From IMG/VR virus record IMGVR_UViG_2703718869_000013, positions 32,001 through 96,000 of that record: a DNA stretch of 64,000 nt; one strand, written 5' to 3'. Shown here piece by piece: positions 11,290 through 53,846 of the stretch (positions are counted from its first letter, which is position 1; each line of letters starts with the position of its first letter). The translations under genes were made by a program, and so were the position numbers. The notes under the pieces are model-generated. The model was given only the letters and a program-made list of their open reading frames with translations. It was not told the DNA's origin and ran no database searches. Origin of the DNA: a virus (Duplodnaviria > Heunggongvirae > Uroviricota > Caudoviricetes).

Positions 11290-11480
11290 CTAACAGGTTT
11301 AACAACCTGCTACCCGCTGTCAAACAGGTGGCAGGACGTGACAGGGTTGACAGACTGGCGTTAGTGAAACCAGCAGGCCGAAGCCTCCCCATCACGCCCC
11401 ACCATAATTCGGGCGTAACGCGGTTTACGGACACAAAAATACCGCAATATCGGAAATCTGCGGTTGTCCGCACTAACATT
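11290..11480 (-). ncRNA. c4: c4-like antisense RNA region (module A) with flanking target repeats
   Basis: Conserved structured block with GGCTTCGGCC tetraloop hairpin; motif triples TTTGACAG/CTGTCAA and GTTAGTG/CACTAAC; exact RNA ends not determinable. Confidence 0.55.
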
Positions 11481-24702: not shown

Positions 24703-25280
24703 TGACATTCAGAATGAGTGAACAATCACGGACCATAAAAATTTATAATCTACTGGCTGGAACCAATGAGTTTATTGGTGAAGGTGATGCATACATTCCA
24801 CCTCATACAGGTCTGCCTGCAAACAGTACCGATATTGCCCCGCCAGATATTCCGGCTGGCTTCGTGGCCGTTTTCAACAGTGATGAGGCATCGTGGAATC
24901 TCGTTGAAGACCATCGGGGAAAAACCGTCTATGACGTGGCTTCCGGCGACGCGTTATTTATTTCTGAACTTGGCCCATTACCGGAAAATGTCACCTGGTT
25001 ATCCCCGGAAGGGGAGTTTCAGAAGTGGAACGGCACAGCCTGGGTGAAAGATGCAGAAGCAGAAAAACTGTTCCGGATCCGGAAGGCGGAAGAAACAAAA
25101 AACAGCCTGATGCAGATGGCCAGTGAGCATATTGCGCCACTTCAGGATGCCGTAGATTTGGATATTGCGACGGAGGAAGAGGCATCGTTACTGACTGCAT
25201 GGAAGACATATCGGGTATTGTTGAATCGTGTTGATACAACAGTAGCATCGGATGTTGAGTGGCCAGTCGCCCCGCAATAA
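24702..25280 (+). CDS. Tail fiber assembly chaperone (U/Tfa family)
   Basis: 192 aa; start overlaps tail fiber stop; U/Tfa-type sequence as recalled. Confidence 0.8.
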
Positions 25281-38809: not shown

Positions 38810-38843
38810 ATTGCTCTAATAAATTTGATTTATTAGAGCAAAT
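38810..38843. promoter_or_regulatory. Tandem inverted C1 operators (ATTGCTCTAATAAATTT / GATTTATTAGAGCAAAT) upstream of module B
   Basis: First half is a 17/17 match to the operator 17-mer, second half 15/17 in inverted orientation. Confidence 0.75.
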
Positions 38844-38924: not shown

Positions 38925-39125
38925 GGTTTGACAGCCTGAATACTTGTGCGGACAACCGCAGATTTCCGATATTGCGGTATTTTTGTGTCCGTAAAACCGC
39001 GTTACGCCCGAATTATGGTGGGGCGTGATGGGGAGGCTTCGGCCTGCTGGTTTCACAAGTGCCAGTCTGTCAACCCTGTCACGTCCTGCCACCTGTTTGA
39101 CAGCGGGTAGCAGGTTGTTAATTCA
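38925..39125 (+). ncRNA. c4: c4-like antisense RNA region (module B) with flanking target repeats
   Basis: Triples GTTTGACAG / CTGTCAACC / GTTTGACAG and ACTTGTG / CACAAGT / ACTTGTGAGG; GGCTTCGGCC hairpin; downstream target overlaps the icd Shine-Dalgarno. Confidence 0.6.
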
Positions 39126-46435: not shown

Positions 46436-46469
46436 ATTGCTCTAATAAATTTGATTTATTGGGGCAAAT
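46436..46469. promoter_or_regulatory. Tandem inverted C1 operators upstream of module C
   Basis: ATTGCTCTAATAAATTT exact, followed by inverted degenerate copy. Confidence 0.7.
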
Positions 46470-46549
46470 AAACTACTATTGGACGCCAGACTATTGATCT
46501 TCCTGTTGTTCAGGCTTATAGTTCCTACGCCGTAGCAAATTCTGCGACC

Positions 46550-46752
46550 GGGTTTAGCAGCCTGAATGTACATGCGGACAACCGCAGATTTCCGATATTG
46601 CGGTATTTTTATGTCCGTAAAACCGCGTTACGCCCGAATTATGGTGGGGCGTGATGGGGAGGCTTCGGCCTGCTGGTTTCATGTACGCCAGTCTGCTAAC
46701 CCCGTCACGTCCTGCCACCCGTTTAGCAGCGGGTAGCAGGTTGTTAAACCTG
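46550..46752 (+). ncRNA. c4: c4-like antisense RNA region (module C), different specificity
   Basis: Same scaffold as module B but triples are TTTAGCAG / CTGCTAA and GTACATG / CATGTAC, changed in a compensatory way. Confidence 0.6.
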
Positions 46753-52174: not shown

Positions 52175-53293
52175 TTATTCAGCCGCCACCGGTTTTAACA
52201 AGCCAGCATCGAGCAGTTTACGCGTCAACCACTGCTGGCCTTTACCCGTTAATTGAGGCGTCAACCGTATCTGGTAGCCATCTTCATCATCCAGCACCAC
52301 TTCTTTCACCGTGAAATACCCGGCGTTGATGTACTGCTGGAACGGCACATTTTTACGTCCACCGGACGCTATCAGGATGCCGTTCTCCCGTAACCAGACA
52401 AACAGCGCGTTTTGCTTAAGTCCAACAACCTTTGCAAAATTCCCAATCAGGATCCCTTTAGCTACTGATACCCGGTCGGCAAAATCGACTTTAGGAGCGG
52501 CGGCCACCAGCTGCTGATTTAGCTGGTGGGCTTTCTGTTCCAGAAGTTGCTTTTGTTCAGCCAGTTCGGCAGCCAGGCGTAGGACTTCAGGAAGCGTCTG
52601 GGGGATTGCGATCGGTTGCTGTTCTTTTTGTCGGAAGTAGCTGTCTTCCAGTTTTTCAAAGAATGCCCATGCCTGATCGGTTTCGAGCATTTTAGCGTGG
52701 CGGGCTGCGCCGCGTTCTGTCCAGAGGGTGAGTGAGCGAACATTGCGAGCAATTTTTACAGAGTAGTTTAAAGCTACTCTGTGCTTCAACTCGCGCAATG
52801 ATTCTCCTTCAACTTTGAAAAAGTGCTTCCCTTCAACAAAGCGTACTTTGTTCTCATGATGATTTTGGCGAATACGGATTGTTTCTGTCCCATACCCTCT
52901 CGCAAGAGTCTCGGTTGTCACTACACGCACTCCCTGCCATTCCAGAACGGGAATTTCATCAGACTGATTCTGAACAACCACCAGCTCCGATTCCTGAACT
53001 GAAGGTGCATGAATTTTTTCTAATTTAACGTTATTTGCTTTCATTCTGTGTGCCTCCTTGCGTGCTTCGGCTGCGACGGTTGCGTAATTCAGATGACCCT
53101 GTTCGAGCAGGTATTCGCGGATATCAGACAACAGGATACGGTGAACCGCGTTCTTGTCCTTTCTCCGGTAAAGTTGTTTGGTGATCATGAAGTAGTTGGC
53201 AATAACGCCAGGTATATCCCTGGTGCTGATACAGATTGTGTGCTGTTCAATTGCCTCGATCATCTCTTCACGGGTGACTAATGACGTTCTCAT
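52175..53293 (-). CDS. ant: Antirepressor Ant (module D), with Bro-N/AntA-like central domain
   Basis: 372 aa; paralogous to module C Ant; ANT/KilAC C-terminus. Confidence 0.8.
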   Translation of the reverse strand: MRTSLVTREEMIEAIEQHTICISTRDIPGVIANYFMITKQLYRRKDKNAVHRILLSDIREYLLEQGHLNYATVAAEARKEAHRMKANNVKLEKIHAPSVQESELVVVQNQSDEIPVLEWQGVRVVTTETLARGYGTETIRIRQNHHENKVRFVEGKHFFKVEGESLRELKHRVALNYSVKIARNVRSLTLWTERGAARHAKMLETDQAWAFFEKLEDSYFRQKEQQPIAIPQTLPEVLRLAAELAEQKQLLEQKAHQLNQQLVAAAPKVDFADRVSVAKGILIGNFAKVVGLKQNALFVWLRENGILIASGGRKNVPFQQYINAGYFTVKEVVLDDEDGYQIRLTPQLTGKGQQWLTRKLLDAGLLKPVAAE

Positions 53294-53511
53294 AGTCCCT
53301 CCTGAGCAGAAGCGTTAACAGGGAGGCACCAGTAACTGAGAGAATTGCGTGAATCAGTGGAAAAACGGGCAGAGAAAATACATGGGGCGTCAGGAAGCTG
53401 AGAGCGAGCCTCATCTTCTGTTGGTGCAATAACGAAGTGATAGTGACGTTTTTGGCAGGAGTAAAAGCGCCAGATAAATTCAGGATGAGTTGGGGTAGGG
53501 ATAGTAGCCAT
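53290..53511 (-). CDS. icd: Icd-like small protein (module D)
   Basis: 73 codons from ATG at 53511 with GGAGG Shine-Dalgarno; track ORF continues upstream without a start signal. Confidence 0.7.
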   Translation of the reverse strand: MATIPTPTHPEFIWRFYSCQKRHYHFVIAPTEDEARSQLPDAPCIFSARFSTDSRNSLSYWCLPVNASAQEGL

Positions 53512-53519
53512 ATTGGCAG

Positions 53520-53700
53520 CCTCCTTAGACGTTGGTATGTAACCACCGCAGAAGAGACCAATCTTGCTGGCGGTGGACTGTACGGAGTTGGCCTTACTGG
53601 CGTCCAAGGTAACCAGCCTACCCGAAGGTAGCCCCATACAGCCCACCATTGTAGAGGTGTGCGTGTACGCCGATACAAAAAAAGACGCGAGCGGCGTCTG
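53520..53700 (-). ncRNA. c4: Divergent c4-like antisense RNA region (module D)
   Basis: Homologous hairpin with same TTCG loop but different stem (CTACC/GGTAG versus AGGC/GCCT); candidate triple GTCTAAGG (upstream, downstream at SD) with CCTTGGAC in the core; terminator hairpin upstream. Confidence 0.5.
53676..53699 (-). terminator. Hairpin AGACGC-cgctc-GCGTCT followed by T7 on the minus strand
   Basis: Direct reading of the reverse complement. Confidence 0.55.
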
Positions 53701-53829
53701 TATCGCCTTAGACTTAAGCGGGAGGCCAATCCCGGCACCCGTTTTAATGAGGTGCCTGATAAGCATAAACCGAAAATGCCTCAAGGCGCAAGAGGTCAGG
53801 CTCAATGTAACATCGGTAGTTAAAAAACA

Positions 53830-53846
53830 CAATTTATTAGAGCAAA
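53830..53846. promoter_or_regulatory. C1-operator-like site upstream of module D
   Basis: 15/17 match; between pacB stop and the module D control region. Confidence 0.6.

Follow-up and report, generated by a model that had tools for sequence, protein, structure and literature searches.

Module D of a P1-like phage-plasmid, a probable additional immI-type immunity cassette with an IsrK-C4 RNA core

Background

In the immI region of phages P1 and P7, an operator with two promoters (Oc4-P51a/P51b) is followed by the target sites a1 and b1, the c4 RNA, the target sites a2 and b2, icd, and ant1/ant2. The c4 RNA of P1 is cut out of the transcript by RNase P; blocking of icd translation brings about Rho-dependent polarity on ant, and the Ant1 and Ant2 proteins inactivate the C1 repressor. 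In the immunity region of phage P4 (seqA-CI-seqC), from which the name of the 'ash' family stems, the CI RNA works through transcription termination and controls replication genes.

The isrK-orf45(STnc1160)-anrP locus of Salmonella Gifsy-1 comprises the isrK RNA, about 25 nt of intervening sequence, a C4 RNA, and an antirepressor gene downstream. An RNA of approximately 80 nt (STnc1160) is processed there from read-through transcripts, and translation of the antirepressor is activated by IsrK given in trans (PMC4825925). Binding of IsrK to Hfq and its trans activation of the downstream antirepressor are known for Gifsy-1 only (PMC4825925). Because IsrK toxicity persisted when the orf45/STnc1160 region was expressed constitutively (PMC4825925), a simple titration model is unproven even in Gifsy-1. 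Units of isrK plus C4 are also found in Stx-converting and other lambdoid phages (F039, P13374, TL-2011c, SfV and phiP27), in early regions directly upstream of Rha/Ant-type antirepressors, and one record of this group (LC710660) already annotates isrK and C4 RNAs.

Results and discussion

Position, composition and spread of module D

The 64-kb window (the whole stretch of 64,000 nucleotides analysed here, from a P1-like phage-plasmid) contains four c4-icd-ant cassettes, A to D. Module A sits at the canonical P1 map position (sim - c4 - icd - ant - kilA - repL), but module D does not: it occupies the slot between pacB and c1, which in P1 is a gap of 24 bp, the immI region of P1 adjoining sim/kilA/repL instead. 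The initial annotation had also placed D there, as a fourth specificity. The parts of D follow one another as in P1/P7 immI. Module D is very probably an additional complete immI-type immunity cassette, the C4-type antisense RNA of which is predicted, from its sequence and by analogy, to block the antirepressor operon (Table 1). It is a mosaic of a putative C1 operator and putative promoters of P1 type, an RNA core that shares approximately 80% identity with its Stx phage counterpart and belongs to Rfam families shared with Gifsy-1, and icd and ant1/ant2 genes of P1 type.

Table 1. Features of module D, in window coordinates
Feature	Position	Strand	Remarks
C1 operator-like site TTTGCTCTAATAAATTG	53846-53830	-	15/17 match to P1 consensus
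Putative C1-controlled promoter (P2c4/P51a counterpart)	53832-53804	-	-35 TTGTGT, 17-nt spacer, -10 TACATT
Putative constitutive promoter (P1c4/P51b and isrK promoter counterpart)	53791-53762	-	-35 TTGCGC, 18-nt spacer, -10 TATGCT
IsrK-like leader RNA	53755-53678	-	Rfam RF01394, 60.8 bits; three hairpins
a1 TTGGCCT	53729-53723	-	loop of leader hairpin 2
b1 GTCTAAGG	53713-53706	-	single-stranded in leader fold
Intrinsic terminator of leader	53699-53683; T7 run 53683-53677	-	scan and fold
C4-family antisense RNA	53653-53566	-	Rfam RF01695, 75.9 bits
Predicted mature C4-D	about 53647-53568	-	16-bp acceptor-like stem ending in GCCA
b' loop CCTTGGAC	53609-53602	-	within C4-D
a' junction AGGCCAA	53594-53588	-	within C4-D
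Downstream target region	53561-53520	-	a2, GCGGTGG, b2 and Shine-Dalgarno (SD) sequence
a2 TTGGTCT	53561-53555	-	pairs with a'
GCGGTGG, complementary to C4 3' strand	53549-53543	-	alternative helix
b2 GTCTAAGG	53530-53523	-	overlaps SD AAGGAGG (53526-53520)
icd homologue, 73 aa	53511-53290	-	80% identical to P1 Icd; NCBIfam NF033153, 49.8 bits
Ant1 homologue, 372 aa	53293-52175	-	ORF6N and KilAC; Pfam PF10543 and PF03374
Internal Ant2-like start	53044	-	AAGGAGG at 53059-53053 ahead
Terminator-like hairpin between ant and convergent c1	52167-52146	-	consensus scan

The D cassette occupies the same slot in 249 of 5,426 complete E. coli genomes and in 268 PLSDB plasmids. Hundreds of sequenced plasmids already contain it, and its RNA can be recognised as belonging to an Rfam family. 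RCS47, JL22 and vB_EcoM-673R5 carry it at the same slot, and at least three specificity alleles occur among ten sampled copies. The genes of the pacB-c1 slot had been noted earlier in RCS47; in the open-access literature, neither its RNA parts nor the presence of multiple c4 cassettes in P1-like elements were found to be described. That the module is a decaying recombination remnant with no present regulatory role in this genome is most improbable. In favour of decay, it is a mosaic insertion, and other copies show an IS insertion or an ant that is frameshifted or truncated. Against it, the window copy has an intact icd, an intact ant and no damage to any of the six pairing sites, IMG/VR contigs with only 81% identity in pacB share an isrK-C4 unit at 100% identity, and the cassette is present in those 249 E. 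coli genomes.

The C4-family antisense RNA and its overlapping reading frame

C4-D aligns with model positions 1-87/87 of RF01695 (gathering cut-off, 45 bits), and the P1-type copies A to C score below it, at 68.6-71.7 bits. An earlier description of D as a divergent c4-like RNA is therefore not upheld, since D outscores A to C on the C4 model and belongs to the subclass of the Stx phages and Gifsy-1. Unlike P1 immI, D has a leader and a C4 RNA of the IsrK/lambdoid subclass (88 versus 86 nt, with other stem sequences), but the C4 fold is the same. The core hairpin ATGGTGGG-CTGTA-TGGGG-CTACC-TTCG-GGTAG-GCTGG was read as proposed on the minus strand (53649-53613), as was the form ATGGTGGG-GCGTGA-TGGGG-AGGC-TTCG-GCCT-GCTGG of modules A to C, and the proposal that the hairpin shape was kept while the stem was exchanged agrees both with the Rfam score and with compensatory stem changes in homologues.

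Folding, suggested as a check, gave a stable structure: the minimum-energy fold of C4-D has -41.6 kcal/mol (z -3.53; none of 200 shuffles folded as well), and both it and the centroid fold have the C4 consensus shape, a long closing stem around two hairpins with the b' loop and the a' junction unpaired. Across nine homologues the C4 stems are 100% paired, with 12 of 26 pairs altered on both sides. C4 RNAs were located by Rfam scans, since the RCS47/JL22 allele, with its different stem and tetraloop, escapes a simple regular expression for the core. The sequence prerequisites of RNase P cleavage are present in C4-D, namely a stem of 16 bp followed by GCCA (53571-53568), and this tRNA-like acceptor stem suggests that C4-D is cut out by RNase P, as the c4 RNA of P1 is.

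A reading frame overlaps the RNA. It opens at an AUG at 53649, within the beginning of the C4 stem, and continues in frame to the icd ATG, so that the stretch might (also) encode a 119-aa 'Orf45/Ash'-Icd fusion and owe its conservation to the peptide. The distance from this AUG to icd is exactly 138 nt in 9/9 D-class modules, with the frame open in 7/9; the RefSeq annotation has an 'ash family protein' at this place, and that of pS13-1 an Icd-like CDS of 120 codons. The ORF of Gifsy-1 begins at the same +107 AUG, and there tagged Orf45 protein was detected and its translation was required for antirepressor expression (PMC4825925). A protein-coding role is nevertheless distinctly improbable: the compensatory substitutions in 12 of the 26 stem pairs are at the RNA level, the a' and b' blocks vary freely while co-varying with non-coding targets, no Pfam or NCBIfam match was obtained outside the Icd part, the window copy has a second open frame as well, and in RCS47 and JL22 a stop precedes the start codon. 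The Gifsy-1 authors likewise report a conserved nucleotide sequence and a variable amino-acid sequence (PMC4825925). Translation of the leader ORF from unprocessed transcripts may accompany the function of the RNA.

The IsrK-like leader

Upstream of C4-D lies a leader that matches the isrK family over positions 1-77/77 of RF01394 (gathering cut-off, 50 bits) and folds into three hairpins, the last of which is the intrinsic terminator. The initial annotation had described a terminator-like hairpin with a T7 run preceding the module; hairpin and T7 run are real, but they lie inside the module, as the terminator of the leader. In P1/P7 immI, too, the leader presents a1 in the loop of a hairpin, with b1 and a hairpin resembling a terminator after it. 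In a local search with RF03163 (c4-a1b1) the D leader scores 20.5 bits (E 0.006), below the gathering score of 46.7, although this sub-threshold alignment still places hairpins 1 and 2 and a1 of the leader correctly; Gifsy-1 passes with this model at 48.1 bits, overlapping isrK.

The tandem of isrK and C4 precedes antirepressor genes in 9/9 other loci scanned (four P1-like and five lambdoid) as well as in Gifsy-1. The lambdoid units are 79-80% identical to D over approximately 260 nt, from the start of the leader into the first codons (MATIPTP...), and have the same pairing logic, with co-varying a and b blocks; unlike D, they have another promoter region and neither a C1 operator nor icd. Gifsy-1 also differs from D in lacking icd and a C1 operator, in its type of antirepressor and in its a and b sequences. 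In a predicted fold of the 252-nt leader of D, a1 and b1 pair with a' and b' in cis, in agreement with 'structure A' of the Gifsy-1 study and with its published helix b-I, a pairing between leader and C4 region (PMC4825925).

Pairing sites and specificity

The b' loop (CCUUGGAC) and the a' junction of C4-D are complementary to b1 and a1 upstream and to b2 and a2 downstream. Exactly two copies of the b target GTCTAAGG exist in the 64-kb window, both on the minus strand and flanking C4-D, and the a target motif GATTGGYCTC likewise has just two copies in the window. This confirms the earlier claim of a candidate target upstream and again over the icd Shine-Dalgarno sequence, the second copy overlapping AAGGAGG as b2 does the icd Shine-Dalgarno sequence of P1. 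The core loop was also correctly said to pair with this target through one G-U; the pairing of a' with TTGGTCT contains another. Pairing had been attributed to b' as a single determinant, which holds for b' itself but overlooked a'; there are two in all.

Over nine related IsrK-C4 modules, the b'-b2/a'-a2 pairs are 99.3% paired and the b1-b'/a1-a' pairs 98.5% paired, as against 47% or less in slid controls. In each set, 11 of the 15 pairs differ between modules on both sides. The alternative helix of GCGGTGG with the C4 3' strand is paired in 9/9 homologues. In all nine modules b2 overlaps the Shine-Dalgarno sequence, of which GGAGG is invariant.

The cognate duplex of D b' is predicted at -13.9 kcal/mol, versus -5.5 kcal/mol for C4-D with the targets of A to C and -3.5 to -4.2 kcal/mol for A to C with the target of D; the matrix rows for RCS47 and JL22 are unreliable, the predicted fold having closed part of the b' loop, and the alignment was used for these instead. 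Thus D should represent a fourth, orthogonal immunity specificity, as was initially proposed, because its a' and b' sequences are unlike those of cassettes A to C; the predicted cross-reactivity matrix and the covariation support this, and the a'/b' specificity differs from that of P1 also. An apparent pairing of D a', through its GGCC core, with the leaders of A to C (approximately -8.8 kcal/mol) was dismissed as not meaningful, the partner likely being the palindromic GGCC of a GAGGCC Shine-Dalgarno sequence. Cross-talk between plasmid and prophage through a lambdoid phage with the exact a' and b' pair of D was also considered and rejected: all 28 IMG/VR matches to the pair have pacB upstream and are therefore P1-like, none being lambdoid.

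Operator, promoters and the icd-ant operon

The site TTTGCTCTAATAAATTG directly follows the pacB stop codon, approximately 85 nt upstream of the start of the leader, and has two mismatches to the P1 C1 consensus. Nine such operator-like sites occur in the window versus 0.04 expected by chance, which substantiates the C1-operator-like site first pointed out at 53830-53846. It aligns with P1 Oc4, is conserved at the corresponding place in other P1-like elements, and may place the D operon under C1 control by analogy with P1. A consensus scan of the minus strand upstream of the leader found no promoter, and the hexamers of both candidates are weak; the two putative promoters are proposed from their position and their alignment with P1 and Stx phage F039. 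The -35 element of the C1-controlled candidate overlaps the end of the operator. The constitutive candidate would start transcription near G53755, its hexamers TTGCGC/TATGCT align with TTGACC/TATAGT of P1 and TTGACT/TATATT of F039, and its -35 element lies 38 nt from the operator, the same spacing as in P1.

Downstream, the icd stop codon overlaps the ant start (ATGA) and ant has an internal Ant2 start, both as in P1. The Icd homologue was recognised by NCBIfam; a Pfam search gave no match for Icd, C1 or PacB. The Ant protein is 56% identical to P1 Ant1, which it resembles in its N- and C-terminal parts (about 130 identities, counted by eye, among the 141 residues aligned between residue 230 and the C-terminus), but an ORF6N domain takes the place of its middle part. 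The cassette can decay, as is seen from the frameshifts or truncations of ant in some copies elsewhere.

Proposed mechanism

By analogy with P1 and Gifsy-1, transcription of module D would start from a weak constitutive promoter and from an upstream promoter under the C1 operator. Many transcripts would end at the leader terminator, giving an IsrK-like small RNA that bears the target copies a1 and b1, and read-through transcripts would contain the C4-type RNA, to be excised by RNase P. Free C4-D would then bind a2 and b2 through its a' junction and b' loop, covering the icd ribosome-binding site; the resulting block of icd translation would also prevent synthesis of Ant1 and Ant2, because icd and ant overlap, and Ant, when made, would act on C1. 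The leader copies a1 and b1 would compete for C4, in cis as long as the transcript is unprocessed and in trans in the form of the short RNA, and hence would set the threshold of Ant expression.

C4-D might instead act mainly as the CI RNA of P4 does: its pairing with leader and downstream sites would end transcription prematurely, either at the IsrK terminator or via Rho, in place of a block to translation initiation. An intrinsic terminator is indeed located between a1/b1 and C4, the RefSeq 'ash family' label covers the C4-D stretch, and D resembles P4 in that a small RNA, predicted to be processed, lies between two target copies, an analogy drawn by the Gifsy-1 authors, who compared IsrK to P4 seqA and STnc1160 to P4 CI (PMC4825925). 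The position of b2 over the Shine-Dalgarno sequence in 9/9 modules, with GGAGG invariant, is the P1 translation-block arrangement, which makes a mainly terminating C4-D unlikely, and termination and translation block are not mutually exclusive.

Conclusions

On a more tentative reading, which is plausible but somewhat doubtful, P1-like phage-plasmids stack several C4 cassettes, four in the present case, that are orthogonal to one another. Independent reassortment of their a and b blocks, and exchange of these with lambdoid prophages, would produce a combinatorial RNA 'immunity barcode'. If so, the barcode would decide which co-resident or superinfecting phages can activate their antirepressors, IsrK would be an a1/b1 decoy of a C4 RNA, and the 'orf45' effect of Gifsy-1 could be read anew as titration that relieves repression by C4 (STnc1160).

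Module D links the literatures on P1 c4 and Salmonella IsrK/STnc1160, which have so far been separate. A single phage-plasmid can thus contain four complete antirepressor cassettes under antisense control, each with its own predicted specificity, and one of the four has an RNA core in common with Stx-converting phages and Gifsy-1. Such C4 cassettes offer natural sets of orthogonal RNA repressor-target pairs. If the specificities are as predicted, the cassettes would determine how superinfection immunity and cross-induction operate between P1-like plasmids, a group with many carriers of resistance or virulence genes.

A c4-icd-ant cassette in the pacB-c1 gap

Whereas pacB and c1 are 24 bp apart in phage P1, about 1.7 kb separates the end of pacB (53850) from that of the convergent c1 (52142; minus-strand view) in the window, which is a P1-like phage-plasmid, and the gap holds an extra cassette, D (52175-53846). 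An Rfam scan of the window gave four matches to the C4 antisense RNA family (RF01695), of which the RNA of D is a clear member (the copies in A, B and C, the three other, P1-type cassettes, scored 68.6-71.7 bits). The icd and ant genes follow c4 in each of A, B and C, making with D four complete cassettes. The start codon of the antirepressor gene of D overlaps the icd stop codon (ATGA), and both ends of its product are conserved in comparison with P1 Ant1.

The C1 operator-like site that the initial annotation recognized at D was borne out by its match to the consensus, and the window contains nine such sites versus 0.04 expected by chance. The terminator-like hairpin with T7, described there as preceding the module, exists, but lies inside the module. 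Behind the C1 operators of B and C, the site is repeated in inverted orientation (ATTGCTCTAATAAATTTGATTTATTAGAGCAAT in B; the repeat of C is degenerate), and thus, judging by sequence, these operators are bivalent-looking; A and D have single sites. The protein genes of the pacB-c1 slot have been noted before in pTZ20_1P and RCS47 (PMC6906374). We found no description in the open-access literature searched of the RNA anatomy of this slot, of several alleles of its cassette, or of four cassettes stacked in one P1-like genome.

Features of cassette D and related elements of the window
Feature	Position	Strand	Details
C4 RNA of D (RF01695)	53653-53566	-	75.9 bits, cut-off 45; top score of the four
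isrK match (RF01394)	53755-53678	-	60.8 bits, cut-off 50; directly 5' of C4 RNA
Icd homologue, 73 aa		-	3' of C4 RNA; 80% identical to P1 Icd; matches NCBIfam NF033153
Antirepressor, 372 aa		-	3' of icd; ORF6N and KilAC domains; 56% identical to P1 Ant1
Internal Ant2-type start	53044	-	inside antirepressor gene; AAGGAGG in front
C1 operator-like site	53846-53830	-	15/17 consensus positions matched
T7 hairpin, terminator of IsrK-like leader	53699-53677	-	terminator scan; between a1/b1 and C4 RNA
C4 acceptor-stem 3' strand, CCACCGC	53576-53570	-	alternative partner GCGGUGG
Downstream GCGGUGG	53549-53543	-	a2 in loop
ORF in frame with icd, 119 aa	53649-53290	-	AUG (53649) opens C4 stem
c4 RNAs of other cassettes	11324-11409; 39011-39096; 46637-46722	-; +; +	icd and ant downstream of each
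C1 operators of B and C	38810-38842; 46436-46468	+; +	inverted second copy behind
Leader of C	46500-46640	+	
Rfam IS009 (RF02111)	25045-25243	+	full-length match, 192 bits; E. coli small-RNA candidate family

Fold and specificity

The core hairpin and other strings quoted in the initial annotation were all recovered where it had placed them, and its reading of a conserved shape agrees with RNA folding, in which the D RNA takes the C4 consensus shape (-41.6 kcal/mol; 0 of 200 shuffled sequences as stable). As proposed, the loop site b' (CCUUGGAC) pairs, one G-U included, with a target (GUCUAAGG) that occurs just twice in the 64 kb, 53 nt 5' of the RNA and over the icd Shine-Dalgarno sequence. 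A second determinant had been overlooked: the junction site a' (AGGCCAA) pairs with UUGGCCU on the 5' side and UUGGUCU on the 3' side, and the 10-mer GATTGGYCTC is found in the 64 kb at these two a-target sites alone.

Cassette A, after which kilA/repL come, has exactly the a' and b' of P1; B has the a' of P1 together with a b' that is new (CACAAGU); and in C, which adjoins cre, the a' of P7 is joined to a different new b' (CAUGUAC). Targets agree with their own c4 RNA in all cassettes. Cognate b' duplexes have predicted energies of -11.6 to -13.9 kcal/mol, versus -5.5 kcal/mol for the D b' against A-C targets and -3.5 to -4.2 kcal/mol for A-C b' against the D target. These predicted energies lend computational support to the earlier proposal of a fourth specificity in the pacB-c1 slot.

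In an alternative pairing, the acceptor stem of C4 can give up its 3' strand to the downstream GCGGUGG, so that a2 comes to lie in the loop. All nine homologues keep this helix paired (three of seven pairs compensatory), and the unprocessed leader is predicted to fold with it; it may act as a conserved switch that determines whether the RNA is processed or its target presented.

Covariation and coding potential

Over approximately 260 nt, the isrK-C4 unit shares 79-80% identity with a unit of many Stx-converting phages that lies upstream of Rha/Ant-type antirepressors; both RNAs are already annotated in at least one GenBank record of an Stx phage. In an alignment of nine isrK-C4 modules, the C4 stems are 100% paired (12 of 26 pairs changed on both sides), the downstream pairings (b'-b2 and a'-a2) 99.3% paired and the upstream pairings (b1-b' and a1-a') 98.5% paired, each of the latter two sets with 11 of 15 pairs compensatory, versus approximately 72% for shuffled and at most 47% for slid controls.

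Translation of this stretch is a rival explanation for its conservation: the ORF that starts at the AUG opening the C4 stem is open in seven of the nine modules, the spacing from AUG to icd is an invariant 138 nt in all nine, and the ORF is named an 'ash family protein' (pseudogene) by RefSeq and a 120-codon Icd in one plasmid record. In RCS47 and JL22, however, there is a stop seven codons ahead of the icd start, and covariation at the level of the RNA, together with a' and b' codons that vary freely, argues that any translation would be secondary to the RNA function.

Among the aligned lambdoid phages the two specificity blocks, a and b, are reassorted independently of each other: ASU11 has an a block of the Stx1_14040 type and a b block of the SfV type, and KH16_043 has the same a block as SfV and a different b block. 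In the SfV, Stx1_14040, phiP27 and ASU11 records (L015-L017 and L019), the entire isrK-C4 stretch is annotated within a long CDS (named 'immunity region', 'antirepressor Ant' or 'transcriptional regulator'), which probably over-extends across two RNA genes.

Mosaic origin and relation to IsrK

By sequence comparison, D has a three-part mosaic structure. Its regulatory region aligns with P1 Oc4-P51a-P51b (operator-to--35 distance 38 nt in both); its RNA core, which begins with the first base of the leader and extends to approximately icd codon 8, belongs to the lambdoid IsrK/C4 type; and its coding part is P1-type in the remainder of icd and at the ends of ant, the middle of which carries an ORF6N insert.

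The c4-a1b1 model (RF03163) aligns to leader hairpins one and two of D with just 20.5 bits, and passes threshold in Gifsy-1 (48.1 bits), overlapping isrK. At matching positions, the leader of P1 contains a first hairpin and another that resembles a terminator and has a U-run. Thus, isrK and c4-a1b1 appear to be models of one element. By eye, CAGG/CCUG of the P1 leader could hold a1 in a loop, but the predicted fold pairs this stretch otherwise. In the Rfam scan, the leaders of A and B reach the c4-a1b1 gathering score, and that of C falls below it.

This locus of Gifsy-1 (NC_010392, 34131-34329, minus strand) also has a C4 match (69 bits), located 25 nt 3' of isrK within the published 'orf45'/STnc1160. 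From the orf45 region, conserved in nucleotide but not amino-acid sequence, a processed RNA of approximately 80 nt (STnc1160) has been detected; IsrK pairs with approximately 30 nt of this region, and in trans activates antirepressor translation (PMC4825925). The comparison made by those authors was with P4 seqA/CI, and in a text search of their paper both 'phage P1' and 'RNase P' were absent. Because of the position of the C4 match and the overlap of c4-a1b1 with isrK, Gifsy-1 IsrK seems to be a C4 RNA's a1/b1 leader. The 252-nt leader of D is predicted to fold with a1/b1 paired in cis with a'/b', corresponding to 'structure A' of Gifsy-1.

Beyond the demonstrated parts, family membership and co-varying complementarity of D, homology suggests that C4-D would be processed by RNase P and would block translation, with coupling to ant, that the leader would serve as a decoy, that C1 would control the cassette, and that Ant would act on C1. 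A P4-like termination mechanism is an alternative that may coexist with the translation block.

Distribution and alleles

Phages vB_EcoM-673R5, RCS47 and JL22 also carry the cassette in this slot, and it is present in 268 PLSDB plasmids and in 249 of the 5,426 complete genomes of E. coli. Ten compared copies, including that of the window, represent three specificity alleles: D1 (the window copy and four others; b' CCUUGGAC, a' AGGCCAA), D2 (RCS47; b' CCUUUGAC, a' GUCUCAA) and D3 (JL22 and three others; b' CCUUUUGC, a' GUCUCAA). In every allele, a1, b1, a2 and b2 are altered to match a' and b'. The exact D1 pattern of a' and b' was found in 28 IMG/VR viral contigs (L021-L048), all with pacB upstream; one of them (L028) has two copies, 1,566 nt apart.

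Decay of the cassette in the window copy is unlikely: every part of D is intact, and the IMG/VR contigs show 100% identity in the isrK-C4 unit, including those backbones with pacB just 81% identical to that of the window. This disparity between the RNA unit and its surroundings suggests that the cassette has been exchanged between diverged P1-like backbones.
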